Assembly: GCA_002269645.1 (NCBI GenBank)
Contig: NIVC01000583.1
Coordinates: 1 to 64,000 of the forward strand
Direction: 5' to 3'
DNA from: Macrostomum lignano
Taxonomy: Eukaryota
Length of the DNA stretch: 64,000 nt
Shown: positions 24,541-46,788 of the stretch, piece after piece
Layout of the letters: each line of letters begins with the position of its first letter
Position numbering within the stretch: position 1 is the stretch's first letter
Made by a program: the position numbers and the translations under genes
Notes under the pieces: model-generated
Told to the model about the DNA's origin: nothing
The model's database searches: none
Seen by the model: only the letters and a program-made list of their open reading frames with translations

Positions 24541-26548
24541 TTCCAGGTATCAAGTTGTGTGGAGTTTGGGGTGAAGAATAGAGCATGGTTCTATTCGTTT
24601 CATATAGCCTCCAGCTGTGCTCCTGTCTGGTTGCGCAAGAAATTGTCTGTACTCATTGTACAGTGAGCAGTGAGCAATGACAATTGTTTAAATTTACTGT
24701 ACGCCTACCCCTGCCATCCATGCTGCAGAAGCGGACAACTCAAGGCAAGGAGTTGTGAGTGCTTATGTGAATGGGGTGCATTTTGGTTTCGTTTGCCATG
24801 CATTAAATTGAAAGTTATATTGTCCTTTCTAGTTCTAATGAATAGAACCAAATAAAATCACTATTAGAGTCCGCTAGGAGCGGCGGACTTTTGGATAGTA
24901 GAGCTGCGCATGGATAGTAGCGTTCGTAATCAGCTGGTAGCGGCGGCGAACAGCTATTAGTTTGAAGCACTGAGCTATTTGCGGAAATGTGAACCAGGCT
25001 TAAGCTACTCAATTTGCCAGCAAGAACAATTTAGGGAAGCTTTTTGGGAACAAAAATCATAGATTCTTTATCAATTTCCCTTGAAAAATCAGGGAACTTT
25101 ATGCTTTGCAGAATAATCTTTTTTAATAGCAGTTTCTCCTGCAAGTAGGTTATCACAGCAAGGTAAAATTGCTTAAAGTGATAAATGAGTGGTTGATCTT
25201 TTTTATTGTCTTGCTACCTACGACAGTCTTGCTAGTACATAATGGCAGTACTAGACATAGGCAAGTATAGGCTTTGGTTTTTAAAGCCAACAGAGACAAA
25301 TTTCCTCTTAAGGGCAAATGGCTACATAAAATAAATAGTTATCAACTCTAGAAAGGCAATCAGCTTAGTATGCAATCAATAAATAAGAACTGTGCTGCTT
25401 TCTTGAAATGAGCTCTCAAAATGGCTAGCATTGTAGCAAGCTTCAGTGTGTAGATTCCAAAGCAGAGGCCTACACAAACTATTGTGTATAAGTCTTGAAA
25501 GGCAGCTTGGAGTCATTGTATGTGCTTCAAATCATCTGCAGACTCCAAAAGAAAAGCTGTCAAAAGAGCCAAGTATTTGAGTATTCACTCTAAATGGGGC
25601 AGTAGAATTAGTCATCTTAACTCAACATTCCACTTGAAAGCAAGCTGTGCCTTTATTACAGAACCTTGATTATTAGCTGGGTTTGCCTGGTGTGTATTTA
25701 TAGAAAAATTAATGGTGTTCTAGAAATTTCTTTAAGATAATAACACAAATACAGTATTATAATATATACTGTAATTAATAAGGGTAAATGCGTTGAATAA
25801 GAATATGGCTAATAATTAAAGTATAAGTTATGTAAAGTTTAAAGGTAGAAATATTTTGCTATAGAAATTTGCAGAAAAATGGGGAAATTTCTTTTACTTA
25901 ATTTGGAAATTTTACTCATAGAATGCGCAGAAAAAGGGAAATTTCTAGAAGCTAGGTACATTGGAATAACATTGCAACAATAGTCCCCCTTGCTAGAGAT
26001 GGAGTCTCAGGATAGAATGACGATTGCGCAGTATGTACAAATTAATGACTGAATGAGCTATATACACTAAAGATGTCAATGGTCAGGTCTAAAGCCTGTC
26101 ATGAAGGAGTAGCAGGATGCGATTATGATACAGATAAGGTCAAAATCAGACCTTATCTGTATCAAAAATGTCAGAAGTAATGGTAGTCATTGTGGGCTTT
26201 AAATTGAATGCATTATCCACTGCTTGATTAGGTCGTCGGCGCCTCCTTGTCAACTTTTGGTGTATTCGCTGTAGTGGATGTTGGTGTGGCCTCCATGTCG
26301 TCCTGGTGTCTGGCTGGTGTAGAGGTTTCCTCCTGCCCCAAAGTCAGCTATATGGACTGCCTAGGCCTGCTCTGTGTTGGTGGCCTTGGCGTCAACCTGC
26401 AGGGTTTGAGCCTGTCAATGGAGATGGCTTCTTTGTGGCCAGGGTGGGACTCAATGATGAAAAACTTGGGAGTGCGCCAAATGACTGGGTACAGTCTGGA
26501 GTATGGTGCTTCCAATGGCTTCCTCACCCTGTCCATATGGACCCAAAC

Positions 26549-28077
26549 CTAATCGGTCAACCATAGCTCCTGAGGCACATGTGGTGTGGTAGATAGCTTT
26601 CTTGGTCGCTGCTCCAAGAGGTGGTCCAAGCTCAGCTGAATGGAGTTAGGGTCTTTGTCACTGACAATAACCTGTGGAAGCATCAGATGCTCGCTAGTGA
26701 GCCTGGTAAATAGGCTGAGGCCTGAATCATCCAGAGCGACATGCATGGTGGGGAATGCCAATGGGAGGTTGTCAAGCCAAGCAAGACCGCACGCCTTAAG
26801 CATTGTCTTCAGAGTCCTGTGGGCGCTCTCAATCTTCCCGTTGCACTTTGGGTGGTACACTGTGGTGCGCAGATAGTGAAAACCCAGGGCGGACAAGAGT
26901 GTCTTGAAGAGCTCGGACTCAAACTGTGGTCCACTATCAGTGATGACATATAGGAGCACTTCGAAGCGAGAAATCCAGGAAGAGATGAAAGCTGCTCCTA
27001 TACTTTGTGCTGTGATGGTCTCGAATGGTGTGGCCTCTAGCCAGCCTGTGTTGCAGTCAATCATGGTAAGGAGATTTCGAGGTGTAAGACCGCACTGAGT
27101 ATCATGTTTCCTTTTGGGAACTGGAAAAGGGCCTACAATGTCGATGTGTACCATCTTGAACCTGTTGGATGGGAGGTTGAAGGCAGCGCTACTGGCCATC
27201 ATGTGGCGGTCTATCTTGGTGCACTGACAAACCTCGCAGGACCTGCAAAAGACCTTGATCTCTGCGCGTATGCTAGTCCAGTAGTAGCAGCTGATGATCA
27301 GGTTGGCAGTCCTGTGGAATCTGTAATGACCAAGTTCATGAAAATGTTTTAGCAGTGATTCACGCATGGAAATGGGGATGACTGGGCAAGGGTAACCTGT
27401 AGAGGTCTCGCAGAGTATGTGACAGCTGTCTCCAAGTAGAAAGAAGTGGCGATGGTCTGATTTGGAAAGGTGTTCGGCAGCTTGCTGATCAGCAATTGCT
27501 GACAAGTCAGTTGACACTGCACCCTGCTTGTTGGCTACAATGGCAGTCGGCTTGTTGAGTCTGGAAAGTGCATCAGCAACAGCATTGTCTGAGCCACAGA
27601 TATATTGAAAGTCAGTGACATACTCAGACAGGATGTTCATGTAGCGCTAGTTGTGGTTGGAGTTGCCATGGGAGTTGTGCCGGAATGCCTGCTTGTGATC
27701 CATGAAGACCGTGACATGCCTGCCCTCGATCAGGTTCCAGAAGTGAAGCACAGCAAGGTAAGTGGCTAGTAGCTCTCGATCAAATGCTGAATAGGCTCGC
27801 TAGGTGGCAGAGAGCTTCTTACTGAACATGCCGATCAAGGTGGTCTGTTCTCCGATTGTCTGATGCGATGCAGCTCTGACGCTGGTAGCAGAAACATCTG
27901 TGACCATCTGATAGGCCGAGCAGTCTGGATCGGGGTGGTATAGCAGGAGACGCTCGGCGAGCTTCTTCTTGAGGTTGTTGAATGTGGCTTGGTGGATGTC
28001 GCTCCATTGGTAGGATCGAGGAGACCGTAGTGCTGCAGTGAGCAGATCCTGCAATGGGGCTACAGCAGATGCAAAAC
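26549..28077 (-). pseudogene. RNase H and integrase remnants of the outer Gypsy element
   Basis: NAVADALSR, zinc-binding HELGH..C..CEVC, VHIDIVGP, VITDSGPQFES, TTVYHPKCNG.IE..HRTLK. Confidence 0.9.
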
Positions 28078-28081
28078 CGGA

Positions 28082-29063
28082 TGTAGAGAACTGTAAATTA
28101 TAACAAAACGCACTACTTAAAGTAATATTCTAACTAAATCAATTTAAACTCGCAATCTATTTTTAGAATGAGTCATATTTATTTTTAGAAATTCTATTTT
28201 TAGAATGAGTCACATGCAAACAGAAGTGACTCAGAGCCCTACGTAGGACCGACGTTTATTTGATCAAGAAACCGGTTCTCGTGAGTTTTATTTGCTTAAT
28301 TCCATATATGGTAATGATCAAACATTCATGACCTCCTAATCAAACATACGTGACCTAAGTAAATAACCGATTTTGAACCAGTTTTTCACCAACATTTTAC
28401 TATAAATATAAGCGAAAATCCGAGTCAAAAATTCAGACTCGGAGCGGTCTCAAGAAAGACTTTGGAATACGTTAACCAAAGAAGACTCATCTCTGAGAGA
28501 AGAAATCCGGATAGATTGGTAAGCGTTTACCCGAATTAGTTAATTGTTACTAGCGCTAATAAGTTAATTAATTGAATTTACGAGAGCCACTTTTGTCGAC
28601 ACATTTGAGAAAGGCCTCCTTGTTTCCTAGGATACATTCCTAGAGGATTTATTGATTTGAATTGAGTTACCCGTTACGTTTCGGACGTAACGAAGAAGAC
28701 GCCCTTCAGGAGGACCTATTACAGACAGTTAGAGAATTCAATTGTTCATAAGGGCGCACGTGTACGTTCTATTGTTCATTCCGAGCTCGAGGACCGTCAA
28801 GAATTCTGATTCGCTCTCGTGTTGGTCGACCCACAGATAAAGTTAAGGACTCCAAGAAACAACAGTTGTTCACCGGAACCGGCCGCCGCCCAGCTCAGCC
28901 AAGTCAGACAGCGCTGCCCACTACAAGAACCAGACGTCTACAAACCACTAGAGGATCCGCCGCAGTAAGTTATCCGACTTGTAGATACCTAGGCACTTGT
29001 TCCCCAGTGTCTAGAAGTGGGAGTTTATTGAGTGACTGATCACCACTCAATATAAACTCTTCA
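28082..29063 (+). repeat. 5' LTR of the nested element
   Basis: Direct repeat of 38602-39583; TATA-like TATAAAT at 28401. Confidence 0.97.
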
Positions 29064-29515
29064 ACTGGTGATCTCGCCCAGGCTCCAGGCCTAACTCAGG
29101 CTCAATCTGAGGCCTATTCTAGGCACGTCAGGCTAATTCAAGCCAGACCAGGCGGGACTGCTAAAAACACCTGGACAAAAATTAAATTTTTTTTATTGCG
29201 TAACCCTACTGAATTTTTCGTGCCGCCCTACGATTGTTTGCATATAGACTCTTTGATTCACCGCATACCGTTTGCACCACTCAGCTGTTAAATTTTGTGA
29301 ATATCTCATTTCAATCACCCCCTTTCTCTTTGGTAAAGGCGTTATATAGAAAAATTTTCCCCTTGCCTTTTTCGCTTCCTCCTGAGTAAATAACAGCCGC
29401 GCGTGCACACACACACACATACACACACACTTGCTCACCACTTTGAGAGGTCAATCTGGAAAATCCTTTGGAAATTGACCCCAATCTTGACTTGCTGCCA
29501 TTTCCATTTGGAAAT

Positions 29516-32500
29516 ATGGCTCGAAGAAACCCTACAGTGCATCGCGATGTCAAGGAAACTGTTGGAATGTATACTATGGATAAGGATTTTAACACCTTCA
29601 TTGAACACTTTGACCTTGTAACTCGCGAATACGGATTACAAAATCCAGAAAAGGCACTTCTTCTTCCTCCACTGCTAGAAGGCACTGCCAGAGAAATTTA
29701 TGGCAAACTAAATGCTGCTGCTCAGCAAGACTATCATACCTTAGTTACGCAACTAAGAACACAATTCGCCAGATGTGGAACCAATCGATCTGTGCTTCTA
29801 CACAAACTTCATAATCGAAAAATGAGTCCGACGGAATCCTTCCTTACTTTCGTCGATGACGTCCGCAAAATTATTAAAGCGTTGCACCAACCACCACCGC
29901 CGAACCCAGGAGCTCAACCTATCGGACCAGCAGAACTAGCTGCAAGAGAAAGACAACGTCTTGCTGATCAAGAACAAAGCCTAATCCTCCATGTCATTAA
30001 TAATGCTCAACCTTCCCTGCGAGACAGGTTGTTAAGAGAAACCATTGAGACAGAAGAACAACTAATTCGTTGCGGCATGCAATGGGAAGCAAGTGCCCCA
30101 CTGCTAACTTCTCGTAGTAGTGATACAACACAATTGGCAGAACAATTAAGCAAGCTGATGCAGCAACACCAAACTTCTGCGATCATGCTACAGCGACAGA
30201 GATACACTTCGCCACCCACTTGCTACACCTGTGGAAGAATTGGTCATTACGCCAGAGACTGCCGATCACGTGGCAATCCAAGACAATATTACGACAACAG
30301 AAGAAAAATTTGGACTCGTCCTCAAAATCGCAATTGGAACCCACCACAGAATAGACAAGGAAATGCCTTGGTGCCTTACCGACAACAGAGAAATCCTCCT
30401 CCTCCAAGACAGCCTACTCAGGTCCGCAGACAATATGCTCAAGCTATTGAGCCGGAATACACCCAAGTCATTGAACCAGAGTTTAAGATAGAAGACCTTA
30501 TGCCGGATTTCACAATCAATGTCCTTGAGGAGTTTGAAAAACGAAAGGATAGCACAAGCAGCGAAAGTAGCTGCATGATGGATTCTCTGTTAGAAGAAGA
30601 TCCACCCATTCCTACCTCTTCCAAAGCAAGTCCAGTCTTCCGAGAAAACAAAAGACAACAACAAGCTACTCCTAAGCAACAAAGCAATTTATTTAAAGTT
30701 CCGACGATCAATAATCTTTCGGAAACTCACAGAGAGAACGAGTCCCAGGATCTTAAAGAAATACCAACACTCGAAGAAGACAGAGACCCAGCAACTTTTC
30801 AAAACATATTTGAAGAAAGCGTTGACATGTTGCAGATCCTAGTCGATGATATAGACCTGTCAGAAACACCTCCAACACAGGAACCAGACTATGAAAATAT
30901 TGTCTCCCCTCGTCCAGCCCAAGAACATTGGAGACATGACAAGGCCACGAACACTGAATCAAGCCATTTGACACACGAAAAGTTCGCACAGACAGAGGAT
31001 GACACTTATGTTTCCATGAACATAGATAACGAAAGCGACTATGATGACCCGATAACAATAATGGAACCGGCTAACAATCCAACTTTTAACAATAAAACCA
31101 CACATCTTACCGATGTATCGAAACCAGGCGAATTTACTCGTCCGATGTGGCAAGCGCAGCTACCTACACCATTACCATGCTCCAACAAGTGGCACTTTTC
31201 GACTCGCCTTACTCCTCCGCCGTATCCTGAAGATAGTCATGACGAGATTGAAGACACTCCACCAGTACCAACAAGACGAAAGAAAAAACATCCGCTACTG
31301 CAATGCTTCCTCACGATCTTGATGATGGCAATTGTTCCCACGGTACTGCCGTCTCCATCTCCAATGATCTGTCCCACTGATGGAGACATCCAGCCAGTCA
31401 TTTACAAGATTCCTACGGAAATCAAATGCAGTTACTTTAAGACAAACCAAACCAAGCCGCTACCACTAACTATCGAAATATACAAGGCAAATACAAAGAA
31501 GCATCGACAAATGGGAATTGTGTGCTTCAGAGATAAGGATGAAATTGAAAAGGTTTGGCTAGTACAATGGAACCGAATCAGATACTGGCAAACTTCGATG
31601 ATGGTATCACATGAGGAATGTCTTCAATGGAACCAAACCTTGTTTTCTAAGGATGGCGAATTAAAACTCCATGAGACGTCCGCCAGTGGAGCACAACTAT
31701 TCCGCACGAATAACGTAGCCTATGGAAGATACGTCCATTATCATCAAGCGCAATGGCCTGCATACACAGTCTACAACAGCTACCTCATCCGAAATGTCTT
31801 ATTCTACCACAATCCATTTGACAACATGGAATCCATGCAGCTACCACTTGACCAGTGTCACTACAGCTCAGGATATTGTGCTACCTCTAACTACAACAAA
31901 GAAGAAGCTCAAAATTTACCCCTAGCACCGACTTATTTCCACGACTATCGATACCAAATTGAATACAGATCGGATTCCCGCTATGAGGAGCCTAGCCGAA
32001 CCCGCAAATATTTCATTGCATGGGAAGTTAAAACTGAAATTGACTGCAAGCTACAAAAATATCACACTGTTAAAGGAAAATTGCTATCTAACACCTTCCT
32101 TGCCGACTCAGGAGATCTCGCTCTTACATTTCCTAAGCAACCAAGCTACACACACTTGAAATGTAAAGACAAGGACGAGCAACTAATCCTCTCCGACCAA
32201 GAAATCCCAATCGTGCTTAAGGATATGGATAAGAATGTGTTCCTGAAAGTAGTAAATGGAACCTATCCGAGAGAAGATATTACAGAACGACATAAGCGAG
32301 ACCTACCGAAGCCTTCCCTAGTGTCAGCACGACTTTTGGCAGCAAAACTAGCCGCTATGGAACATAAGCTGCACAAGCAACTGAACTATTTACACCGATC
32401 TATGGTCAAACTGACATGCCGAATGCATGAAACCAGTCTAAATTACGCAAGACAGAACTATTATGTCAATCCCACGACGACCTTCAGGAAAATCACAGGG

Positions 32501-35500
32501 ATTGAAAACGTCTTGGCAATTCCGGTTTACGGATATTTGTTAATCTACAAGTGCACACCGATCCAACATTTCAACATTTTGCCAGCAAATACGACAACAA
32601 CCTGCTACGATAAACCTCGAATTGAAGCATTTTTCAATGGAAGGCGAATCCGAGGATTTCTGGACACTGTCCACAATATCATCGTTGGAACTGCCATTCC
32701 AAGACCATGTACCAACGCAGCCAACTACTTCAATTTAAACGATCTACTTCACCAGATTTCATCGGCAGGCAATATAAAGAATATCTCAAACTCGCAAGCT
32801 ATTATAGACGAGACATATGAAATATCGGACCTTCAAGTAAAATTTAACAAAACGATGTACAAACCTTTTGGAGATGTTAAGCTGGACGAAATTACCCCAG
32901 GATGGACTATCAACGATTTCCTGCAAGTCTTCATTTCACAACGACAGGTCCTAACAAAACTGTTCACGAAACGACAGCAACGAGATCCAAATCGACCTAC
33001 ATCTCCGATAGGAATGACTATGCACAATGCCATTCAATCGTTTTGGTCGAATAGCTTTCTAGACCTAATACAAGGGCGAGGAAGCCTATACCAAGGTTTT
33101 CTTTTCTCCAGCGCTTGCATTGTATGGATCCACCTAGCGCTACTCATTCTTGTCACAGTAGCCCGATGCGCAGCAAGAAATTGTCCACAAACTCGAGGCA
33201 TCTTTCAAATAATCAAACAAACAGAAACTACCACTACAGGAGAAGAACCAACCGAGGAAACACCTATGCAAGTTCAAGAAATTAGACCAGAACCTAACGC
33301 ACCAGAAACTTCAAACATTTATCCCAGAATCGAATTTAAGCCAGCAATTCCTCCGCAAATGCCGCCTCCACTACCAACCGACCCAAAATGGCCAGCTAAT
33401 TACGTCTGCACTCTCCAAGCCAACATGGGAAGAGCAATGGCTCAAGTACTTGTCAACAACACGCCCAGCAAAGCACTACTTGATTCCGGAAGTTCCATTA
33501 CAGTCATCACCAGGAGACTGTATGATAAGCTACAACTTCGAATGCGACCATCATCCATCGCTGTTGCTGGAGCAGGTGGACACGCGCTTAATATCCTTGG
33601 ACAAGTTGGGATTATGCTCAAGCTGGCAAATAAACAACTTCCTGTTCAAGCGTTTGTTATTGACCACCTCCCAAGTCAAGATGTTATCATTGGAATCGAC
33701 ACATTTCGACAACTGAATCTACCGTTGACATTTGACTTCAACAAACAGACATTCAAACTGGACAATGTAGAACACCCTTTGGTCAGCCAGGTCCATCTCC
33801 AACCTAAAGTTCATCTGCGACAAGATGTCTTCATACAGCCACAAAGCACTTGTTGGGTTAAGGCACATTTGGCAAGTAACGAAGATGTTGAAGAAGCTAT
33901 GATTTTCGAACCAAGAAAGAAACTACTAACAACAAAGGAAGTTCTAATTCCAACAGCATTGGTTCTTATTAACTCAGAAAAAACAATTCCGGTACAGATT
34001 GTCAACCCTCACCAACATCCCGTTAAGATCTACGCGAAAACCTGCATTGGATATCTTAATACACAAGCCTCCGTTATGCTTATCCAACATACGACAACAA
34101 GGATGTCAAAGCAACAGTTCTTGAAACAAATTGATCTCTCGCAAAGTCCAATCACGGAAGGACAAAAAACACAGGTCAGAGATCTACTTTGGAAGTACAA
34201 TGACGTCTTCTGTCATCATGATTACGACATTGGTCGCGCTCGTGACATCAAGCAGAAAATCGAACTACTACCCCACCAGGAACCCATCCAATGCAAACCA
34301 TACCCAGTCGCAAAACATCTGCAGCAACATTTCGATGAAATCATCGAGAAAATGCTCAAGGCCGGAATCATCAAAAGAACAGTTTCGGCATATTCATCAC
34401 CGTGTCTACTAGTTGAAAAGAAGGAAACAAATGAAAGACGACTTGTCTGTGACTTTCGAGTCTTAAATAAATACATCCCCACAGACCAACAAAGTCTACC
34501 AAAGATTTCGGAACTATTGGCACGACTGAACACAGCTACCCTCTTCACCGTATTTGATCTGAGACATGGCTTCTGGCAAATTGAACTTGAAGAAGAATCA
34601 AAACAATACACAGCATTCAAGACTTACAAGGGAGAAGTCTTCGCCTATCAGAGAAGCCCAATGGGGATTTCCAACTCCCCAGCAACCATGAGCCGCTTAA
34701 CAGCCTACATGCTAGCGGGATGTACGAACCTACTGCATTACGTAGACGATATCCTCGCCTTCGGAGATAATTTCGAACAACTACTGAACGTCATGGAACA
34801 AGCTCTCTCACTCCTTCAAAAACAAGGCCTAAAACTACAACCTACAAAGTGCAAATTCTGCAGAGACTCAGTCCGATATCTAGGACATCATGTCTCCGCA
34901 AGAGGAATTTCACCTGACCCTAATAACGTCGAAAAGGTCAAGAAGTTCCCCAAGCCTACAACACTTACAAAACTACAATCATTCCTTGGATTAGCACAGT
35001 ACTTCAGAAAATTCCTACCAAACTTCGCGCAAACCGCAAAGCCATTATATGAGTTGTTGAAGTTTCCCAAATGGAAGGAAGAAAATTGGAAAACGGAACA
35101 GCAAAACAGTTTTGATAAAATTAAACAGCAACTAACCAGCGACGCTCTGCTCAAACATCCAGACTTCCAAAAACCTTTTATTATCGAAACAGACGCATCA
35201 GGAAGTGGCTTAGGAGCTGTACTACTTCAAGAAACAGACCAGAAAAAGGAAAAACCAGTTGCTTTCATCAGCCGAGCCCTACGGCCGAACGAAACAAAAT
35301 GGTCAGCCACCGAACGTGAACTACTAGCGATCTTATTCGCCCTTCGACAGTTTCATTACTACATATACGGATCACCGCTACCAACCATCATCCGCACAGA
35401 CCACGCACCGCTGACTCATGTCGTCAAAACAAAAGGACAAACGAATAACAGACTTATTCGAATGGTCCTCAAAATTCAGGACTACAACTTTCATCTTGTC

Positions 35501-36955
35501 TACAAACCAGGACCTACAAACAAGGCCGCGGATGCGCTATCAAGAGCATATGAAGTCAATGCGGTTCACCCCATCCCGACAATGACGGATCTACTGAAAG
35601 CACAACAAGAAGATAATTTCTACCAAGCTGTACTCGATGACACAGAAGAAACCGAAAAATCGCTCACCAAGATCGAAAAGAAATTTTTACGGAAGCAAAG
35701 CAACAATCTCATCTTCAAAGAACTAGCACTTTACTGGTTGCACAACAATACTCCAAGATTGTACCTACCATACAACTATCGTGCTACAATCTTACACGAA
35801 CTACACGACACACCTCTAGCCGGACACCTATCCGCCAAAAAAACAATTCACAGGATAGCCCAGTTTTACTTCTGGCCAACAATGAATGCAGACATCCGCA
35901 AGTACTGTCTACAATGCCACTCATGCGCCTCGACAAAGACTGGAAGAAGACAAAAACCGGAACTTCAATCCGTACCAAAAACGACTACATGGGACACGTT
36001 ATCACTTGATATTACCGGACCACTACCACCAGCTCGACAACATGCTATCGATTACACTTATATCCTCACGGCACTAGACGTGTTTTCTAAATTTGCTGTT
36101 GCCATCCCACTACCTGACATCACAGCCACTACCGTTGCTATGGCCTTCTACAATGAAATCATCTGCAAATACGGAACTCCAAAGACCTTAACCTCCGACA
36201 ATGGTACGCAATTTACGTCGCAACTATTCCAACAAGCGGCTAAACTACTAAACATCCAACAAATTTTCACCTCCACCTACAATCCAAAAGCGAACCTAGT
36301 AGAACGATTCCATAGAAATCTACACGAAATGTTGACACACTTCGTCTATAAGCAGCCTGAAGATTGGATCATATATCTACAGTCAGTAACAATGGCCTAC
36401 AACAGCGCAGTGCACCGCTCAACAGAGAACACACCATTCTTCCTTATGTTCTCTCGAGACTTCCAGCCACCAAGCTTACTAGTTCAAAAACTACTACCTT
36501 CTCAGTACGTGGACAAGCCAACAACACTGCAAAAGTTTACTTCACAGCTTCACCTGGCATGGCAAATCGCGAAACACAATTTAGAAAATCAACAGGCAGT
36601 CGCCACCACAAGCAATCATGCATCTACTCTACAAGTAGGAGACATCGTTTACCTACATTATCCTGCGCAACACACGCATAAGCACGCCTTTAAATACAAA
36701 GGACCATTCCGAGTAACGGCACTAGTATCGGCAACAACGGCACGTCTTGCTAATATCCAGGATCCGCATCAGGCTCAATTCTATGTTCACATTCAACGCC
36801 TAAAACGTATCACCAACGACACTACGTTTCTTCCAGAACTACAAAATCCAGATCACACAAAAACAGCAAGCAAACACATTGCTACAGCACATGCCGAAAC
36901 ACAAACAACAAACGCACCACCTATCGGCCATACGTACAATCTAAGACCCCGTTAA
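29516..36955 (+). CDS. Single Gag-Env-Pol polyprotein (2479 aa from the first ATG; the frame is open from 29468)
   Basis: CCHC knuckle CYTCGRIGHYARDC (~30220); hydrophobic signal-like segment (~31290); RHKR (32288); TM segment (~33090-33160); protease LLDSGS (~33475); RT YVDD (~34740); RNase H IETDASGSGLGAVL; integrase HELH..H..C..CHSC, LDITGP, SDNG.QF and GPF motif. Confidence 0.95.
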   Translation: MARRNPTVHRDVKETVGMYTMDKDFNTFIEHFDLVTREYGLQNPEKALLLPPLLEGTAREIYGKLNAAAQQDYHTLVTQLRTQFARCGTNRSVLLHKLHNRKMSPTESFLTFVDDVRKIIKALHQPPPPNPGAQPIGPAELAARERQRLADQEQSLILHVINNAQPSLRDRLLRETIETEEQLIRCGMQWEASAPLLTSRSSDTTQLAEQLSKLMQQHQTSAIMLQRQRYTSPPTCYTCGRIGHYARDCRSRGNPRQYYDNRRKIWTRPQNRNWNPPQNRQGNALVPYRQQRNPPPPRQPTQVRRQYAQAIEPEYTQVIEPEFKIEDLMPDFTINVLEEFEKRKDSTSSESSCMMDSLLEEDPPIPTSSKASPVFRENKRQQQATPKQQSNLFKVPTINNLSETHRENESQDLKEIPTLEEDRDPATFQNIFEESVDMLQILVDDIDLSETPPTQEPDYENIVSPRPAQEHWRHDKATNTESSHLTHEKFAQTEDDTYVSMNIDNESDYDDPITIMEPANNPTFNNKTTHLTDVSKPGEFTRPMWQAQLPTPLPCSNKWHFSTRLTPPPYPEDSHDEIEDTPPVPTRRKKKHPLLQCFLTILMMAIVPTVLPSPSPMICPTDGDIQPVIYKIPTEIKCSYFKTNQTKPLPLTIEIYKANTKKHRQMGIVCFRDKDEIEKVWLVQWNRIRYWQTSMMVSHEECLQWNQTLFSKDGELKLHETSASGAQLFRTNNVAYGRYVHYHQAQWPAYTVYNSYLIRNVLFYHNPFDNMESMQLPLDQCHYSSGYCATSNYNKEEAQNLPLAPTYFHDYRYQIEYRSDSRYEEPSRTRKYFIAWEVKTEIDCKLQKYHTVKGKLLSNTFLADSGDLALTFPKQPSYTHLKCKDKDEQLILSDQEIPIVLKDMDKNVFLKVVNGTYPREDITERHKRDLPKPSLVSARLLAAKLAAMEHKLHKQLNYLHRSMVKLTCRMHETSLNYARQNYYVNPTTTFRKITGIENVLAIPVYGYLLIYKCTPIQHFNILPANTTTTCYDKPRIEAFFNGRRIRGFLDTVHNIIVGTAIPRPCTNAANYFNLNDLLHQISSAGNIKNISNSQAIIDETYEISDLQVKFNKTMYKPFGDVKLDEITPGWTINDFLQVFISQRQVLTKLFTKRQQRDPNRPTSPIGMTMHNAIQSFWSNSFLDLIQGRGSLYQGFLFSSACIVWIHLALLILVTVARCAARNCPQTRGIFQIIKQTETTTTGEEPTEETPMQVQEIRPEPNAPETSNIYPRIEFKPAIPPQMPPPLPTDPKWPANYVCTLQANMGRAMAQVLVNNTPSKALLDSGSSITVITRRLYDKLQLRMRPSSIAVAGAGGHALNILGQVGIMLKLANKQLPVQAFVIDHLPSQDVIIGIDTFRQLNLPLTFDFNKQTFKLDNVEHPLVSQVHLQPKVHLRQDVFIQPQSTCWVKAHLASNEDVEEAMIFEPRKKLLTTKEVLIPTALVLINSEKTIPVQIVNPHQHPVKIYAKTCIGYLNTQASVMLIQHTTTRMSKQQFLKQIDLSQSPITEGQKTQVRDLLWKYNDVFCHHDYDIGRARDIKQKIELLPHQEPIQCKPYPVAKHLQQHFDEIIEKMLKAGIIKRTVSAYSSPCLLVEKKETNERRLVCDFRVLNKYIPTDQQSLPKISELLARLNTATLFTVFDLRHGFWQIELEEESKQYTAFKTYKGEVFAYQRSPMGISNSPATMSRLTAYMLAGCTNLLHYVDDILAFGDNFEQLLNVMEQALSLLQKQGLKLQPTKCKFCRDSVRYLGHHVSARGISPDPNNVEKVKKFPKPTTLTKLQSFLGLAQYFRKFLPNFAQTAKPLYELLKFPKWKEENWKTEQQNSFDKIKQQLTSDALLKHPDFQKPFIIETDASGSGLGAVLLQETDQKKEKPVAFISRALRPNETKWSATERELLAILFALRQFHYYIYGSPLPTIIRTDHAPLTHVVKTKGQTNNRLIRMVLKIQDYNFHLVYKPGPTNKAADALSRAYEVNAVHPIPTMTDLLKAQQEDNFYQAVLDDTEETEKSLTKIEKKFLRKQSNNLIFKELALYWLHNNTPRLYLPYNYRATILHELHDTPLAGHLSAKKTIHRIAQFYFWPTMNADIRKYCLQCHSCASTKTGRRQKPELQSVPKTTTWDTLSLDITGPLPPARQHAIDYTYILTALDVFSKFAVAIPLPDITATTVAMAFYNEIICKYGTPKTLTSDNGTQFTSQLFQQAAKLLNIQQIFTSTYNPKANLVERFHRNLHEMLTHFVYKQPEDWIIYLQSVTMAYNSAVHRSTENTPFFLMFSRDFQPPSLLVQKLLPSQYVDKPTTLQKFTSQLHLAWQIAKHNLENQQAVATTSNHASTLQVGDIVYLHYPAQHTHKHAFKYKGPFRVTALVSATTARLANIQDPHQAQFYVHIQRLKRITNDTTFLPELQNPDHTKTASKHIATAHAETQTTNAPPIGHTYNLRPR

Positions 36956-37085
36956 AAATTTTCGCTTTTGTTCCCCGTGTAGTGACCGGGATAAAGAATA
37001 GCACTACAGCTTCTTCAAGCTTGTCGTAAGAGGCGACTAAACCTGTTTTTCTACGAGCGTTCACGTAACTTCTAGAAACGCCACC

Positions 37086-37736
37086 ATGGACTGCCCGATT
37101 TGTCTCGAAGACTTTTTATGTAAACTACCTTGTATATGTGTCAATAAACATCAGGTTTGTGGTTCTTGCTTAAGCTTTGCACATTACAAAAAACCTTTTA
37201 AAACTTGCCCTGTATGTAGGGGTAACCTCCGTCAATGCATAATATGCAATTCATGGCGCACTGAACAATATTGCCTAAATCAACATTTTATATGCGCGCA
37301 ATGTATCAAGAAACTTGCTTCTCGCTCCCTCTGCCAATGTCCCATATGCGATGCCACCCCTCTCCCTAAAGTTAACAACAAACTTGCATGTATTCAAGCA
37401 AACTATAAACTGCAGCTTCACCCATTCACTTATGCTCTTTTTCCATCAAATGCGATAATTATACGCCTCAGAGCATGGCCCATACCACGTATTGCTCATA
37501 AAACACGTAAATACCTTGTACGCTATTCATCTCTCTATGGTTTTAGCCTCCGACAATTATCTCCAGAAGAAATTGAACATAAACTGTTTAAAATAGTTAC
37601 GGATAAGGCTCTACATCCATGTCCGATCCTCTGTACAGTTCTACCTGCACTTATTCTGCGTAATGACGACTTATCTTACATATTACCACCCCAAGAATCG
37701 TATCAGTATATTAGTTCCGAATCAGAAAATAATTAA
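37086..37736 (+). CDS. Accessory ORF A: tandem double RING-finger (C3HC4-like) protein, 216 aa
   Basis: CPIC..C...H..C..C..CPVC immediately followed by CIIC..C...H..C..C..CPIC. The ATG sits in a GCCACCATGG Kozak context. Confidence 0.88.
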   Translation: MDCPICLEDFLCKLPCICVNKHQVCGSCLSFAHYKKPFKTCPVCRGNLRQCIICNSWRTEQYCLNQHFICAQCIKKLASRSLCQCPICDATPLPKVNNKLACIQANYKLQLHPFTYALFPSNAIIIRLRAWPIPRIAHKTRKYLVRYSSLYGFSLRQLSPEEIEHKLFKIVTDKALHPCPILCTVLPALILRNDDLSYILPPQESYQYISSESENN

Positions 37737-37752
37737 TATCTTGCCCACAGAT

Positions 37753-38349
37753 ATGGAAGACTGCCCGATATGCCTCGACACCAAGCCGTATATGGTGCCT
37801 ACGTGCGCATGGGGCCATCTGGTCTGCAACGACTGTGGCGAAAGAGAGGAAATTACACGATGTCCACTCTGTCGACAAGACAGGGTGTGGTGTATCGTTT
37901 GCGGCGACCTCCCCCAACTCCAATTGTGCACCCAAGGCCATTGGAGTTGCGTTTCTTGTGCCGAAACAATCGCACGCCGCGACATTCGGCACTGCCTAGA
38001 GTGCGGTTGGGCAATGACAACCACAACGCTAGACTACACGCATAGAATACCAGTCGTTCCGGAAACCCAGCTCCACACGGAACAAATAGCCACAATGTCC
38101 ACAGCTGACCTGACGTGGGCCATCCGGACATGGCCCGTGACCTTACGCCAAGTCGTCTTCCGTGACAGACTGCTAGAAATGGGCCGCAACATCACGGTGG
38201 ACACTACAATCACCACCGACGTGGCAGCCTATCTCACCATCCTCGACAGGACAGAAGATACAGGCTACACACCACTTCAGTTCCTATACTGGCCAATGGT
38301 CACCTTAATAATGCGGCTAAAGGCCATGCTAAGGCATGCCTTCGAGTAA
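37753..38349 (+). CDS. Accessory ORF B: tandem double RING-finger protein, 198 aa (likely start MEDCPIC)
   Basis: CPIC..C.WGH..C..C..CPLC followed by CIVC..C.QGH..C..C..CLEC. AG acceptor CCCACAG lies 2 nt before the ATG. Confidence 0.88.
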   Translation: MEDCPICLDTKPYMVPTCAWGHLVCNDCGEREEITRCPLCRQDRVWCIVCGDLPQLQLCTQGHWSCVSCAETIARRDIRHCLECGWAMTTTTLDYTHRIPVVPETQLHTEQIATMSTADLTWAIRTWPVTLRQVVFRDRLLEMGRNITVDTTITTDVAAYLTILDRTEDTGYTPLQFLYWPMVTLIMRLKAMLRHAFE

Positions 38350-38601
38350 CAAATAATTTATAACCCTTACTCTAACACGCTTAACTCGACGCGAACGCAT
38401 CGTACTAAATTAATTTGGTAATGGGTTTTTCCAAGCTAATGTCGCAATTATGATATGTACATTCCGTTCTTGCTCTATAAATACTTACATATTTATTCCA
38501 CATCATTACTATGAATTCATTCTCATTTCTGTCATTAAAACCATAATTTTATTATTCCAACTTTAAATTCGGGACGAATTTTTTGTAACCATGGGAGATA
38601 T

Positions 38602-39583
38602 TGTAGAGAACTGTAAATTATAACAAAACGCACTACTTAAAGTAATATTCTAACTAAATCAATTTAAACTCGCAATCTATTTTTAGAATGAGTCATATTT
38701 ATTTTTAGAAATTCTATTTTTAGAATGAGTCACATGCAAACAGAAGTGACTCAGAGCCCTACGTAGGACCGACGTTTATTTGATCAAGAAACCGGTTCTC
38801 GTGAGTTTTATTTGCTTAATTCCATATATGGTAATGATCAAACATTCATGACCTCCTAATCAAACATACGTGACCTAAGTAAATAACCGATTTTGAACCA
38901 GTTTTTCACCAACATTTTACTATAAATATAAGCGAAAATCCGAGTCAAAAATTCAGACTCGGAGCGGTCTCAAGAAAGACTTTGGAATACGTTAACCAAA
39001 GAAGACTCATCTCTGAGAGAAGAAATCCGGATAGATTGGTAAGCGTTTACCCGAATTAGTTAATTGTTACTAGCGCTAATAAGTTAATTAATTGAATTTA
39101 CGAGAGCCACTTTTGTCGACACATTTGAGAAAGGCCTCCTTGTTTCCTAGGATACATTCCTAGAGGATTTATTGATTTGAATTGAGTTACCCGTTACGTT
39201 TCGGACGTAACGAAGAAGACGCCCTTCAGGAGGACCTATTACAGACAGTTAGAGAATTCAATTGTTCATAAGGGCGCACGTGTACGTTCTATTGTTCATT
39301 CCGAGCTCGAGGACCGTCAAGAATTCTGATTCGCTCTCGTGTTGGTCGACCCACAGATAAAGTTAAGGACTCCAAGAAACAACAGTTGTTCACCGGAACC
39401 GGCCGCCGCCCAGCTCAGCCAAGTCAGACAGCGCTGCCCACTACAAGAACCAGACGTCTACAAACCACTAGAGGATCCGCCGCAGTAAGTTATCCGACTT
39501 GTAGATACCTAGGCACTTGTTCCCCAGTGTCTAGAAGTGGGAGTTTATTGAGTGACTGATCACCACTCAATATAAACTCTTCA
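38602..39583 (+). repeat. 3' LTR of the nested element
   Basis: Same length as the 5' LTR; no mismatch found by eye. Confidence 0.97.
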
Positions 39584-41870
39584 CGGAGATGAAACATCCA
39601 TAGAAACCGATCACACAATTCACACCAAGGAAATGTTGCAGGGCAGCAGTGTTGTGAGGAACTGGCCAGTTTTTGATGGTATTGACTCTCATTTTAAGAG
39701 GTCGGATTCCATTGGAGGAAACATGATGGCTGAGAAAGGTGACTACACTCCTAAGGAAAACATTTGCTGAGCTGAACCTTTAAGCTATGGTGAGCGAGTC
39801 GGGTCAACATGGCTTCTAGGTGTTAGAGATGCTCTTCCTCCGACCTCGAGTAGACCAGAAGGTCATCCAAGTAGGTGATGATGCAAGATAGGCCACGCAG
39901 GACAGAGTCGATGAAGCACTAGAAGGTCTGCGTGGCATTGCAAAGTCGAAAGGGCATCCTAGTCCACTCAAAAAGGCCAAATGGTGTGATGATAGCAGTC
40001 TTGGCGATATCCTTTTCTGCAATGGGGATCTGATGGTAAGCGCGAACCAGATCAAGCTTGCTGAACATTTTTGCGCCATGGAGATAATGAGTGAAACTCT
40101 GGATATGTGGGACCAGGTAACTGTCTGGCTTGGTAGTGCTGTTTAGCACTCAATAGTTGCCACATGGTTGCCATTTGCCAGATGGCTTCCTGTCTAATTT
40201 CTTTGGAACCATGTGGCAAAGAGGCGAAGCCCATGAACTCTTAGATGGATGGATGTACCCTGCATCGATGAGTTGCTAGAATTCATTAGGAGCAATGTGA
40301 AGTTTCTCCAGATAAAGCTGATGCGCTCTGGCGTGCACTGGCTGATGTCTGCCAGTGTTGATCCTATGAACAGTGTCATGCTTGATCACATCCACTGGTG
40401 GTAGCCGACCTCCCTCTACATAGATAAAGACCCTGAAATCGGCCGATCAGCCGCCTGACGCGTGGATTGCAGTCTTTATGGTAGTTCAGAGTGACGTTGA
40501 AGTTGCCGATGGTTGTCGTAGTGACAGGCAGCAGTGGAGTATGGAATGCAGTTGTTGGATCTACCAGCTGGCAAGCTTTGCAGTCGACCAAGAGACCAAA
40601 ATGTGACAGAAAATCGTAGCCAAGGATAGGGTGAACAATGGAGGCCACTATAAAAGTCCATCGATAGGCGCGGTGCAGTCCTTTAATGACAACCTCCAGG
40701 GAGATTACGCCTACAACAGGAATGGTCTCATCTTTGGCAATGGTTAATCGGAATCCTGTTGCTTGGACATTTTGGGATAAGTACTGTGGTAGGATGATAT
40801 AGACACTGCAGCGCCAATATCAACCAGGAACAGTCGGCGACACACATTGAAGAGGAGGTTGACGATAAGACAAGACTTGCACGCCGCTTTGTCTGTGGCA
40901 CTGCTAATTACGGCGTCATGGGTAGTGCCTAGAAGTTTCCTTGGGCCAGATATTCTGGCAAGTTCAAGCGGGATTGCACCAGAGTCCTTTTGTTGGGACC
41001 TATGATGCAAGGCTGGCAACCACTAGATGAGCGCGGGAACTGGCACCAGCATCTACATGTGTGTGTTTGTGCACCATAGTATAGATGTCCTCTGCAGACT
41101 ACTGGTTTTTGGCCTGGGTAGAAGGGCTCCATGCTAGATGTCAGCTGGGACTTCTGCCATGGCCCCAGTGTCTTTGAGTTACCTGCTGCACTCTGAACTG
41201 CATGGACATGGTGGCCAGATGACTGCTGGATAGCCAGCATGGAGTCCACAATGGAAGCAAGCCATGCTGGATCTTTGTCTTGGAAACTGGACAGATGAAG
41301 GTGTAGCTCTGCTGGGAGGCAGCGAAGAAGTGTGGCCTTGACCATGTCTGGGTTCTCCTTGATGTTGCACTATGCCATCTTGGCCTGCAGCCACTGTATG
41401 GTGCTGGGTTTGTCTCTTCCCAGGTCAGAGATGCTCATGACCTCATTAATTTGCTCCTGCTGACTCTTCTGAAGCATCTTCAGTATGACTTGCTTCAATG
41501 TGGTATAGTTGGCTGGAGTGTCCACAGACAATAAAACAGCTGCAATATCCTCTGGTAGATGACAGATCAGGTGGTTGAACTGCATTACCTCGGATGTGAT
41601 GTTTTGAAGGTTGAACTGAGCATCCAACATCCAAAACTATGCATCGGGGTTGCCACAAAAGAATGGTGGTACCTTAAGGGCTACCACAGCTACCGTGGGC
41701 TGGTTGACAGGTGCTGCCGCGACACTCATTCCTTGTGTAGGCAACGTGGCAGGTGCAGGCGTACCCCCGGAGGGCTGTTGGCTGACCACTGATGGTGTGT
41801 TGGTGTTTCCTTCCGCTATTGGATCGTACACATTGAATGAATTGAATGCTCTGAATGAAATACTAGTCAA
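39584..41870 (-). pseudogene. gag-PR-RT remnants of the outer Gypsy element
   Basis: Fragments in several frames with stops and frameshifts (ORFs 41637..41870, 41370..41630, 40929..41345, 40744..41019, 40376..40648, 39919..40149). Confidence 0.88.
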
Positions 41871-43384
41871 TTAGATGCCTCACCAGACCAGTTGTAGTGG
41901 GTTTGCAAAATAAGTAAGGCTTGTAAGTGGTGGTTCGTTTGTTTATTTTTGATAATTGAGATTACAGAACCTTGCTTATTAGCTGGGTTTGCCTGGTGTG
42001 TATTTATAGAAAAATTAACGGTATTCTAGAAATTTCTTTAAGATTATAACAAAGATATGGTATTATAATATATACTGTAGTTAATAATGGTAAATGCATT
42101 AAATAAGAATATGGCTAATAATTAAAGTTTAAGTTATGTAAAGTTTAAACATAGAAAAATTTTGCTATAGAAATTTGCAGAAAAATGGGGAAATTTCTTT
42201 TACTTAATTTAGAAATTTTACTCATATAGAATGTGCAAAGAGAAAGGGAAATTTCTAGAAGCTAGGTACATTGGAATAACATTGCAACAGGCCTATGTTG
42301 TCCTAAATTAGTATCATACTTTTGCTAAACCATATAACTCCTAATACCAGGAGGGGAAAGAGCAAAAAGTTTAGACACTATCCTTGGGCATAGAGTTTGA
42401 AAGCCCTTAAAATGGTATAATAAGCATTTTCTTCTAGAATATTATAGTCTTACAAAATTGAATATATATTGATATATAATTTGTTTATCTCTTGTCTAGT
42501 ATTTGAGGCATGTATAAAATGTATTTATATTAACTAAAAGTTAGATTTTTCTTACTTGGTACTATAGATATTAATAGGAAGAATGAAGAAAAGAAAATAC
42601 TTGAATAAACAAAAAAAATAAAAGAGAAGAAAGTTATAACTGCAGCATTTTTGGTAGGAACTATGGTTTTTTAGGCTATCACCACCAAATATCAAAAATA
42701 TTTATTTCTACTATCAAAGTCTCCTCTGGTGTTAAAGGTTTAATTTTACACTGTTTCAATTTTTACACCTTTTTCGTTGGCTTTTATTGAGGCCCTAGAA
42801 GTGCACTAACAAATAAATTGTATTAACACACAAGTAATAGACATTATTAAGGTTCATATCAGTCAGCTTTGCAATTTTTTTTTCATTCTAAAAGACTTGC
42901 CATAATACAAATATTTCCATAGTTTAAGTCCATAGTTTATATATAGTCCTTTCCTTTCACCCAACTATTGCACTTTAGCCTAATCTCCATTTTGAACTCC
43001 TTGACATGTTTGGCTACATGTTCTTAACATGTTTAATCTAAAATTGACATTTTTTCTGCAGGCTAAAAATTCTAAGGCACATCTATCTAATGCATTTTCA
43101 AACTATGTTAACAGTTTTTGCGGACTGTATATATTCGAATGTATTTGTCAATTAGTAAAATTCATTATTAAATTCCTTTTTGCACTCTTTTGCAGCGAAT
43201 TACTTCTTAAGAATGCAGTTAAAGTCAGAAGTTGGCATCCTGATGATAGATGTAAGTGCAAGCGATTCAATTTATTGTTCTTTTACTCCAGTTCAAATAT
43301 TTATAGTTTTTAAACAAGAAATAACGATAAGGTTTGCTCTTACATGAAAAATACTGTTACTGGACTACCGCCAAACCTCCTACA

Positions 43385-44542: not shown

Positions 44543-46788
44543 CATAGAAATCTAGAATACTAACTGGAAGTGAAGGCTTTCGCGGGGGCGTACATACCCG
44601 GGCCGGGATAAAAAGCTCCTCTTCCCCAAAAGTTTTATTTCCCCCAAAATTTTAATGTTTATTTATCATTCTTTCCATTGAAACAATTTTATTTTGCTCA
44701 AATTTTGCTACAATTAAGGAATCAGCCGTTCTCTTCTCATGTGGTAGCGGGACATTAAAAAAGGCGCTATCTTTTGCTGGGAGCTCCAGAGACTGCCTTT
44801 TCTGAAAATTGTTATATACGTTTTTAATTGTGTGCGTTGGGTCAAACAGAAGGAAAATCTTCTTTTCTCGATGGAACGGATGGGGTACGCATGTTTGCAG
44901 AATGCCACCGCAAAGCTTGTGGACAAAAAACGCACGGTTTGCGGAATGGTTGTCAACCAAGATGGTCACTACATTAAGGTTTGTGCGCTGCAGCATCCCC
45001 ATGACGCTCGTGTAGTGCTCGTGCAATATTTCGGCAGTCAACTTGCTGAGGGGGAAAAGTGCGACGACATCGCGGTACTTTCCGGCGATTGACTTGACCA
45101 TGAAGCACAGCATTGTTGAAGCCGGGTTGGCCTCCTGCATGCCAACAATAGACCCGGAAGAGTAGTCTATTCTTCGATTTAGGTGTATCTCATCAATAAT
45201 CAGGTTGACATTACTCTCCATTATTGACAGATTTTGAGTCCGTAGATGAAGGTAATTTTCGTCCGAGACGCCAGGGCTGACAGACAGAGGACTAGAAATC
45301 GCCGTTAGTCGTCTAACTGATGGCAGAACAAGCAGGTCTTGATCCAGCAGCACCTGGTAGCAAGCTGAACTGGTGGACTTCAGCACCATGGCAAACACTA
45401 TCAAACCAGGGGAGTACCGTCTAGCCTCCTTTGCCTGGCAACGAAGCCTAAGCTGCTCCACTATAAACTGGATTTGCTGCATCAGTGGCGTGGCAGAGTC
45501 ATTCGATTCCTCCAGCAAGTTGCACAGGCAATCGATGGCAGCTTCAATCCATTTAGCTTCTGCGCTTCTCGGATTGGGATCAGGGATGCCCCACGATTTT
45601 ACTAAAGCTAATAAGTTTTGAATCTGCGAAAACAAGGTGATCTTTTCGAGATCCAAAAATTGTTCAAATCGCTTCATTGGAACCGGTTGTCCTTTCAAAC
45701 TTACAGAAGCAATCATATCGCGTTGAATTTTTACAGAGCAGACCAGATTCGGGACATCCTCCACATCAATCAGGCAGAACGCAATGGAGTCGGCGCCAAA
45801 CACAGGAACGAATCCAATAGGAATCGGATTGCTCTCTAGCATGGTCTTGATTTCCTCCAACGATCCCACTTTATCCAACGACAGAAACTCCGATGCCGCT
45901 GTTTCTAGCCTGTCACTTTCGGCTTGGTGTCGTAGCCCAGCTGTGGCTGATTCGGTCCGGGAAGTAGAAGCCATTGGCTGCAGTCTTTCCGGAAGTTGAG
46001 GAAAAACAGAGGGGATGGCTCCCTTTCGTAAAACGCGCAGGCTCAGTTGCGCATTTCTCTTGCGCTTTCGACGAGTGTTGGAGTCTTGCGATGTGCTGAT
46101 GAAGTCCGACTCCAAAAAGTGCGCAGAGCACAACCGAGACTCCTTAGTTGGGGCATAGTGCTCTCTGCGAATTCTTCGGAGCCACTCAGTCATCAGTTGT
46201 GGATCATTTAACGGAAAGGCATGGAAAGATGTTTTCACATTCGATTCATTGTTCGAAGTCCTTCTTGCGTAGCCAGATTGGCAATTAAATGCAGCGCATT
46301 TGTATCCCATCTAGGCAAATTTGTGATATTCAGTTTTGGCAGGATTTGGGTGCTAACAGCCGGTTGCCTCTTTGTTATATATATTATTTTCCTGTGCAGA
46401 ATACTGTTTGATGTACATTTCCCTCCTCTCCTCTCGTTTCCCATATTCTTTCCTTCCTCCCAAGAATATCCCCACTCCTATTCAATTGATCGTGCACCAC
46501 TGTAAAGAGCTCTCTGTTTTGCTCCAGTCCAGGGTTTGCTATCACTGTACGCTCGTACAGCATTTACAGTGTACATCTGGGTGCTGTCTGAGCTTGAAGG
46601 GAATGAGAGATGAAGGCATGAGCAACTAGAAAGAGTTTTAAAGGGCTGGGGGGTTTTGGGAGGGTCTTTTGGATGCGGGTTTAGTCACTATAACATTTTC
46701 AAGCTAAAAAGAATCGGCCCGGGTAGGTACGACTTGAACTCCCCGACAAAGAAGCCTTCACTTCCAGTTAGTATTCTAGATTTCTATG
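44543..46788 (-). mobile_element. P-superfamily (THAP-transposase) DNA transposon, probably internally deleted, 2246 bp
   Basis: Perfect 37-bp TIRs CATAGAAATCTAGAATACTAACTGGAAGTGAAGGCTT at 44543-44579 and 46752-46788. 7-bp TSD CCCGTGC at 44536-44542 and 46789-46795. Confidence 0.93.
44652..46310 (-). CDS. THAP-domain P-element/THAP9-like transposase, C-terminally truncated, 552 aa
   Basis: THAP pattern CAAFNC..FHAFP..W..CSAHF..AIPSVF. Catalytic-region motifs LIIDEI, LVDNHSAN and FDPTH.IKN..NN are present, then similarity appears to end. Confidence 0.88.
   Translation of the reverse strand: MGYKCAAFNCQSGYARRTSNNESNVKTSFHAFPLNDPQLMTEWLRRIRREHYAPTKESRLCSAHFLESDFISTSQDSNTRRKRKRNAQLSLRVLRKGAIPSVFPQLPERLQPMASTSRTESATAGLRHQAESDRLETAASEFLSLDKVGSLEEIKTMLESNPIPIGFVPVFGADSIAFCLIDVEDVPNLVCSVKIQRDMIASVSLKGQPVPMKRFEQFLDLEKITLFSQIQNLLALVKSWGIPDPNPRSAEAKWIEAAIDCLCNLLEESNDSATPLMQQIQFIVEQLRLRCQAKEARRYSPGLIVFAMVLKSTSSACYQVLLDQDLLVLPSVRRLTAISSPLSVSPGVSDENYLHLRTQNLSIMESNVNLIIDEIHLNRRIDYSSGSIVGMQEANPASTMLCFMVKSIAGKYRDVVALFPLSKLTAEILHEHYTSVMGMLQRTNLNVVTILVDNHSANRAFFVHKLCGGILQTCVPHPFHREKKIFLLFDPTHTIKNVYNNFQKRQSLELPAKDSAFFNVPLPHEKRTADSLIVAKFEQNKIVSMERMINKH

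Follow-up and report, generated by a model that had tools for sequence, protein, structure and literature searches.

Duplicated tandem-RING accessory genes with E3-ligase hallmarks in a gB-type errantivirus of the flatworm Macrostomum lignano

Errantiviruses with a GAG-ENV-POL order and a gB-type Env are known from nematodes, bryozoans and flatworms, according to the parts of PMC13524379 at hand. RING, accessory, zinc finger and splicing go unmentioned in its main text. One element listed there under Platyhelminthes, Mlig_errantivirus_2, has an LTR of 863 nt, which fits the 864-866 nt LTRs of a sister family in the genome studied here; Pol of that sister family is ~72% identical to Pol of the family that we describe. 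Full-text searches of openly accessible papers, judged by their listings, turned up no description of RING accessory genes in an LTR retrotransposon. Large DNA viruses encode RING proteins that act against host defence.

We analyzed a 64,000-nt stretch of the M. lignano genome, called the window here, in which positions 28082-39583 form a complete LTR element with the following features:

28082-29063, plus strand: 5′ LTR, 982 bp, TG...CA
29066-29077, plus strand: primer-binding site (PBS); its reverse complement is the PBS given for the published flatworm gB errantivirus
29516-36955, plus strand: single ORF of 2479 aa, Gag - Env - PR - RT - RNase H - IN
31292-33178, plus strand: gB/chuvirus-like envelope region, limits approximate
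38602-39583, plus strand: 3′ LTR, 100% identical to the 5′ LTR
28078-28081 and 39584-39587: target-site duplication CGGA flanking the element

The Gag part of the ORF carries a CCHC knuckle and a PPPY sequence at aa 567. The env region has a hydrophobic leader, a furin-like RHKR site (aa 925) and a transmembrane segment (aa 1193-1221), and it resembles the Pfam family Monjiviricetes_fusion (PF24664) with an E value of 6.7e-5 that falls short of the cut-off. Paired LTRs, a PBS, a target-site duplication, the order PR-RT-RNase H-IN and an env between gag and pol, the traits of gB-type errantiviruses, were all found. Judged from its sequence, the element is an intact, young GAG-ENV(gB)-POL Ty3/gypsy errantivirus. 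It shares the Ty3/gypsy pol, the gB-like env between gag and pol, and the PBS with the errantiviruses of PMC13524379, but an array of 3′ genes, a subgenomic mRNA and an RNA element do not figure in the available parts of that source. The errantivirus is itself inserted in a Ty3/gypsy element of the minus strand that is older and broken (25655-42289), with an integrase-like ORF at 26549-27640 and 329-bp repeats at 25655-25979 and 41961-42289 that are 93% alike. The window also holds a THAP-domain P-type transposase at 44652-46310 on the minus strand, with 37-bp terminal inverted repeats near 44543-44579 and 46752-46788.

An initial annotation had reported two intact ORFs between the pol stop and the 3′ LTR, each opening with M(E)DCPIC and encoding two adjoining C3HC4-like fingers with C-x3-H spacing. 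We confirmed both points, with the ORFs at 37086-37736 and 37663/37753-38349. The ATG at 37753, 2 nt past a splice acceptor, is the working start of ORF2, and not that at 37663. The two genes are laid out as follows:

37086-37736, plus strand: accessory gene 1 (ORF1, type 1), 216 aa, basic
37092-37220, plus strand: RING1 of gene 1
37236-37349, plus strand: RING2 of gene 1
37350-37733, plus strand: helical domain of gene 1
37753-38349, plus strand: accessory gene 2 (ORF2, type 2), 198 aa, acidic, 2 lysines
37762-37875, plus strand: RING1 of gene 2
37891-38004, plus strand: RING2 of gene 2
38005-38346, plus strand: helical domain of gene 2

The C-terminal halves, which had been described as sharing no obvious similarity, proved to be related. 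Separately built profiles aligned over 95 columns (hhalign probability 88, E 2.8e-6), the W and P at positions 127-128 were kept in 26 and 27 of 27 proteins, and the predicted models showed the same series of helices in ORF1 and ORF2, a second check that is not independent, as both models used alignments with all paralogues. Because their C-terminal halves are homologous, ORF1 and ORF2 are paralogous over their full length, with the layout RING1-RING2-helical domain, and belong to a new family. The earlier picture of two ligases with unrelated substrate-binding halves gives way to one of homologous halves that have diverged, and the old duplication that it assumed, yielding genuine, selected accessory genes, is upheld, as is the description of the whole as a complex, virus-like retroelement.

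Searches of the same genome returned at least 150 matches for each ORF, and families with ~70-96% Pol identity carry arrays of two to three RING genes right behind the integrase. For alignment we took 27 open or nearly open proteins, chosen to span the families, with broken copies left out. A tree of 23 proteins of this genome and 3 outside homologues parted type 1, which is always first in the array, from type 2, which comprises four subtypes; long branches join at the root, and the deep order is unsure. Full-length homologues from other public runs (P0002-P0004) are 30-41% identical, and since P0002 groups with type 1, the split between the two types is old. On visual comparison P0001, a UniRef entry assigned to Macrostomum lignano, almost matches one of the paralogues found here, and P0005 and P0037 are further homologues from other public runs. 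Whole-protein coverage was seen in only 4 of 204 matches when 1.84 billion representatives were searched, the remainder being mostly single RINGs. All seven type-1 proteins are basic (pI 8.6-9.4) and type-2 proteins are neutral to acidic, so the two types probably have different partners.

The structure predictions for the two accessory proteins were confident (pLDDT 93.9 and 90.6), and neither model contained a transmembrane segment. For the helical domain no recognised relative emerged, the best fold-search Z scores (6.3 and 5.5) lying within noise; fold searches of the accessory proteins gave no match at E<=0.001, and an Atlas search yielded RING leads below 0.9 and nothing for the helical domain. 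The viral and metagenome contigs searched held no relatives of these proteins. A prediction of an ORF1-ORF2 complex, run without alignments, scored 0.00. Most tandem-RING matches follow an integrase or other element parts, a few fragments having no such neighbour in the stretch fetched, and we saw no free-standing host copy of the gene in the cluster stretches read. We conclude that the tandem RING plus an unclassified helical domain is a new protein family.

We compared the fingers with known RING domains. RING1 matched Pfam Sina_RING in 25 of the 27 family members at E<=0.05; ORF2 fell just short of the curated cut-off (E 1.2e-6) and ORF1 reached only E 0.59. In a search of PDB sequences the best solved relative of RING1 was the SIAH1 RING (E 2.7e-5), and the suggested SIAH/Sina-like character is therefore supported for this finger. 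The host SIAH RING came first of three candidates compared with RING1 (82 vs. 77 and 63), with overlapping spreads. RING1 may derive from host SIAH or from a Polinton-like RING. No Pfam match to the Sina zinc fingers or TRAF-like domain was found in the 27 proteins, whereas host SIAH has both. There was likewise no match to an IBR domain, and six residues separate the two fingers, so the layout departs from that of RBR ligases. Each C3HC4 zinc ligand, with RING spacing, was present in 24-27 of the 27 proteins in both fingers. The RING1 model superimposed on cIAP2, RING1B and RNF4 with an rmsd of ~2 Å, and the RING2 model on Nse1, RNF213 and RNF146 with Z ~5 and an rmsd of 1.9-2.8 Å.

The fingers differ at the surface that faces the E2. 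RING1 has the linchpin Arg after the last Cys in 27/27 proteins, the Pro in 25/27 and an I/V in loop 1 in 23/27, whereas the linchpin Arg of RING2 was found in 0/27. A linchpin residue positions ubiquitin for transfer and activates E2~Ub (PMC12326332, in the part available). The view of the domains as E3 modules thus stood for RING1, which carries E3-ligase hallmarks, but not for the two RINGs as equivalents. Lysine was depleted in 18 of 20 type-2 proteins relative to the element's own polyprotein (6.4%), with 2 lysines in 198 residues of ORF2; the signal is partly compositional (26% A in ORF2 vs. 35% in pol) and comes from related rows, and it was missing from the other 2 type-2 proteins and from most type-1 proteins. 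Lysine poverty is a trait of many RING E3s (the accessible part of PMC10665810). Taken together, these sequence features suggest that the accessory proteins are likely to have E3 ligase activity.

We next considered how the genes are expressed. Two splice signals are relevant to gene 2:

28961-28970, plus strand: splice donor in the 5′ LTR, exon end 28964, intron GT from 28965
37748-37750, plus strand: splice acceptor CAG, exon from 37751, 2 nt before the ORF2 ATG

The donor at 28964 and the CAG-ATG starts had been predicted before the run contigs were compared. Among the joints listed, a GT..AG joint from 28964 to 37751 was detected in runs X1, X3 and X4, which come from three studies and are presumed to be RNA with strandless contigs (depth 14.7, 47.4 and 15), and in 0/1 control runs, this being a fourth run of unrecorded kind. 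Contigs starting from 37751 showed 1 and 0 differences from the window copy over 850 nt, and 0 of 52 genomic matches started at this acceptor. A YAG 0-2 nt ahead of the ATG was present in 11/11 second-position genes, 0/8 first-position genes and 0/6 third-position genes. In these putative RNA runs, ORF2 is made from a spliced LTR-to-acceptor mRNA.

Gene 1 lies behind a stretch of ~65 nt, between the pol stop and its ATG, that is kept in all families and contains a predicted structure:

36974-37037, plus strand: conserved non-coding RNA element, an H-type pseudoknot and two small hairpins
36974-36977 with 36987-36990, and 36978-36984 with 37002-37008: stems of the pseudoknot

The pairing held in 97.7% of cells on 13 distinct sequences, compared to 28-40% in slid controls, and two pairs of the second stem changed on both sides (11 cells; 0/500 shuffles as high). 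We consider this support moderate, since the 13 sequences stand for some three lineages and were themselves the source of the structure. Two methods blind to pseudoknots, RNAalifold and single-strand folding, gave no covariation and z -0.41, Rfam contained no family for 36900-37150 (one chance row at E 6.1 among 4227 families), and no match to the pseudoknot turned up in viral contigs. The pseudoknot lies within the intron of the ORF2 mRNA and always directly 5′ of gene 1. As gene 1 falls within the intron removed from the gene-2 mRNA and its ATG is not preceded by an acceptor, the RNA element most likely serves gene 1, and it may do so through internal initiation, re-initiation or control of a candidate acceptor at 37009/37010; a role in export or stability is the alternative.

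Two other routes to gene 1 were examined and set aside. An acceptor at 36982/36983, suggested by contigs that start at 36984, was rejected on the joints listed: a 41-nt stretch common to families explains the contig break, and other families have no AG there. Read-through of the stop or a fixed frameshift into gene 1 is unlikely because, by eye, gene 1 lies in another frame and the spacer between the pol stop and the pseudoknot differs in length (~10 to 19 nt).

To gauge selection we calculated dN/dS by the Nei-Gojobori method. In 12 of 19 gene pairs the ratio was 0.10-0.30 with bootstrap intervals below 1, covering both RINGs and the helical domain. Four of the remaining pairs are very close, with intervals spanning 1 (0.31-1.21), and three are saturated, none being informative against selection; the pol ratio was 0.04-0.06. 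A ratio near 1 across copies had been named as evidence against function, and between families we found purifying selection instead. An arms race might push dN/dS above 1, but we saw no sign of this between families, and the four close pairs were uninformative. Between families, type-1 proteins are 27-28% identical in the helical domain vs. 57-61% in the RINGs. One family (C717) is 96% identical to the window element in Pol and 86% in gene 1, but only 32% in gene 2, and the C282 and C1154 families have a dS of 0.54 in pol vs. 1.5-1.9 in the accessory genes. These comparisons show that the array duplicates and that sibling families exchange gene 2.

The cassette has been lost from about 45 young copies. 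In a hand count of 150 matches listed for gene 1, 30 were intact, 24 ended after RING2 and 21 had a stop in RING2. Three checked copies of the RING2-truncated or RING2-stop kinds were without gene 2 and had LTRs that were 99.7-100% identical. In the two full-length copies most closely related to that of the window, gene 1 is frameshifted and gene 2 open. Conversely, six internally deleted copies (L006, L007, L008, L009, L010 and L013) keep both RING genes open. These non-autonomous copies are without most of env, PR, RT, RNase H and IN (window 32326-36740) and retain one open frame from gag to the integrase tail, ending at the normal stop, together with the pseudoknot; their deletion joint was also present in runs X1 and X4. 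Disrupted or absent ORFs in other copies had been named as grounds for doubting the genes. Many young sister-family copies do indeed have no intact cassette, but because selection is clear between families, the losses point to a trans-acting, dispensable function rather than an artefact. The cassette is dispensable in cis, which fits a function supplied in trans.

The slot behind pol holds other cargo in more distant GAG-ENV-POL families of this genome (env ~24% identical). Some have a different ORF of ~255 aa with a CAG right before its ATG (L084:7799-8578 and L086:7956-8717 on the minus strand; L090:2303-3100; L091:2149-3027), for which we found no credible Pfam match and no relationship to the RING genes. 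In a third distant family the ORF behind pol is hydrophobic, in part broken and at most 309 aa long (L082:8182-9158, L088:7161-8135, L092:1912-2623), and the C270/C247 family has no ORF of at least 100 aa behind pol. An unrelated ORF with the same CAG-ATG start suggests that the spliced 3′ slot, freed by the move of env into the polyprotein, takes up cargo such as the accessory genes.

We propose the following model. With env inside the gag-pol polyprotein, the spliced 3′ slot holds an array of paralogous accessory genes, of which gene 1 would be translated or spliced with help of the pseudoknot. Each protein would be a single-chain RING E3 ligase, with a RING1 that binds E2~ubiquitin and activates it, a structural RING2, and a diverging helical domain that selects the substrate. 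The proteins would act in trans, so that copies without a cassette could multiply as passengers, and their substrates would come from the host. Factors of silencing or restriction are the likeliest of these, in parallel to lentiviral Vpr/Vpx. That these are functional accessory genes we regard as nearly certain. That they encode trans-acting RING E3 ligases with host proteins as targets, and probably factors of silencing or restriction among them, is in our judgement an even call, and the odds that the target is a host defence factor in particular fall a little short of even. Of the two roles first suggested, budding is weaker than anti-silencing.

In the host the piRNA pathway is active and uses clusters that run in one direction (PMC4604429, as far as its available part shows). 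Several stretches of this genome are packed with whole and partial copies of the element (C2121:1-66000, C87:229000-280000, C1130:1-46000, C3033, C272, C1405, C4009 and C273; L050-L075), and in C2121, C87, C1130 and C3033 all listed element matches have one orientation. By their sequence arrangement, these one-orientation stretches resemble unidirectional piRNA clusters or tandem insertion hot spots. A bolder version of the model, which we advance tentatively, is that the element's own ligase array acts in trans to destroy factors of piRNA or chromatin silencing, and that the host in turn gathers elements in one-directional clusters, a complex-virus design evolved in an invertebrate retrotransposon lineage independently of vertebrate retroviruses. 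Such a design would comprise a variable ligase array in the place that env left, expressed through subgenomic mRNAs and through a new pseudoknot signal.

Other readings of the same data deserve attention. The proteins could be regulators like Rev or CERV that, with the pseudoknot as response element, move or protect unspliced genomic RNA, their RINGs serving as scaffolds or regulating turnover. In C. elegans, a spliced mRNA of the Cer1 element encodes the export factor CERV (PMC10309623, available part), and gene 2 here likewise comes from a spliced mRNA whose removed intron holds a conserved structured RNA, the predicted pseudoknot with its two compensatory pairs, which is the logic of Rev and RRE; the basic charge of all seven type-1 proteins also agrees. 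However, the proteins, compared by description, show no likeness to the H/M/G domains of CERV, the spliced product is the neutral to acidic type 2, the invariant linchpin Arg and the lysine depletion are left unexplained, and the pseudoknot is invariably found just ahead of gene 1, the place expected of a signal for translation or splicing. We consider this reading unlikely.

Less probable again is that the ligases act in stem or germ cells on host regulators of the cell cycle or of apoptosis, so that they would give the element a wider niche and not a weapon against silencing. It draws on the same ligase hallmarks, on the presence of a Sina-type RING gene in a Polinton-like element of this genome, and on the oncogene-like accessory genes of adintoviruses (the part of PMC8502044 available).

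A role in assembly or budding, like that of arenavirus Z or of ligases that ubiquitinate Gag or Env for ESCRT sorting, we rate a shade lower still. Arenavirus Z has an N-terminal Gly for myristoylation and a late domain. An M-G-N-x-x-S start, which we take to be myristoylation-like, is seen in type-1 proteins of four sister families, C282, C1154, C102 and C181 (L041:1698, L042:1972, L044:1855, L046:2063), and RING2 aligns with Lassa Z (Z 5.0, rmsd 1.9 Å, 46 aa), where it is tied with cellular RINGs. Against this, the M-G-N-x-x-S start is absent from the window ORFs and the C391 type; a Z-like N-terminal Gly and late domain are absent from both window ORFs, Gly-2 occurring only in sister-family type 1; neither accessory model has a transmembrane segment; and the polyprotein has its own PPPY at aa 567, presumably a late motif. 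Finally, neutral cargo, that is, captured host exons or chance ORFs without function, is largely refuted and hardly credible: many young copies have lost or broken the cassette, but purifying selection at saturating dS, acceptors conserved in all 11 second-position genes along with a spliced transcript, the confident folds and the occurrence in other public runs of homologues that span the whole protein (30-41% identity) speak against it.

The model of trans-acting ligases aimed at host proteins bears on a wider question: do retrotransposons of animals, like complex retroviruses, take active steps to disable silencing by the host? The element offers small, well-folded, expressed candidate ligases and natural lineages with and without them, in a tractable flatworm whose piRNA pathway has been described, and this opens the question to direct testing.

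Several known systems share parts of this arrangement. ORF3 of bdelloid elements (PMC5408684) and the 3′ ORFs of plant elements (PMC7264820, PMC11963269) are extra, typically spliced ORFs between pol and the 3′ LTR, but the available parts of these sources describe a GDSL esterase, a DEDDy nuclease, and coiled-coil or TM proteins, encoded by single genes rather than arrays. The words RING and ubiquitin are absent from those parts, and RING also from the part of PMC12440569 available. CERV of Cer1 is a cysteine-rich Ty3/gypsy accessory protein from a spliced mRNA but, on the accessible part of PMC10309623, it is spliced from within gag, has 517 aa and H/M/G domains, contains no RING and is a proven export factor. 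SIAH/Sina E3 ligases resemble RING1 in spacing and sequence, but in place of the Sina zinc fingers and TRAF-like domain the element proteins have a second RING and an all-helical domain.

The RING proteins of DNA viruses (ICP0, NCLDV, adintovirus) share the RING fold, weak Foldseek rows covering one RING only, but none matches at E<=0.001 or spans the tandem RING and helical domain. Polinton/adintovirus-like elements of this genome, recognised by an integrase and an Adeno_PX-like core protein, carry single Sina-type RING plus B-box-like genes (L095:3609-4094 and L096:3493-3879, both minus strand; G000:C210, also C1491 and C2920), and they are a possible exchange partner for RING genes.

Lentiviral Vpr and Vpx, which share no homology with the accessory genes here, are also duplicated, recombining accessory paralogues, and they bring about the degradation of SAMHD1 and HUSH, host factors of restriction and silencing (PMC12090772, in the part available). 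Having no RING of their own, they work as adaptors for a cullin ligase of the host, whereas the element described here encodes the RING itself. By analogy, the Vpr/Vpx pair may be the closest working model for the array. With its new protein family and new RNA element, the errantivirus is a real new variant within a known element class.
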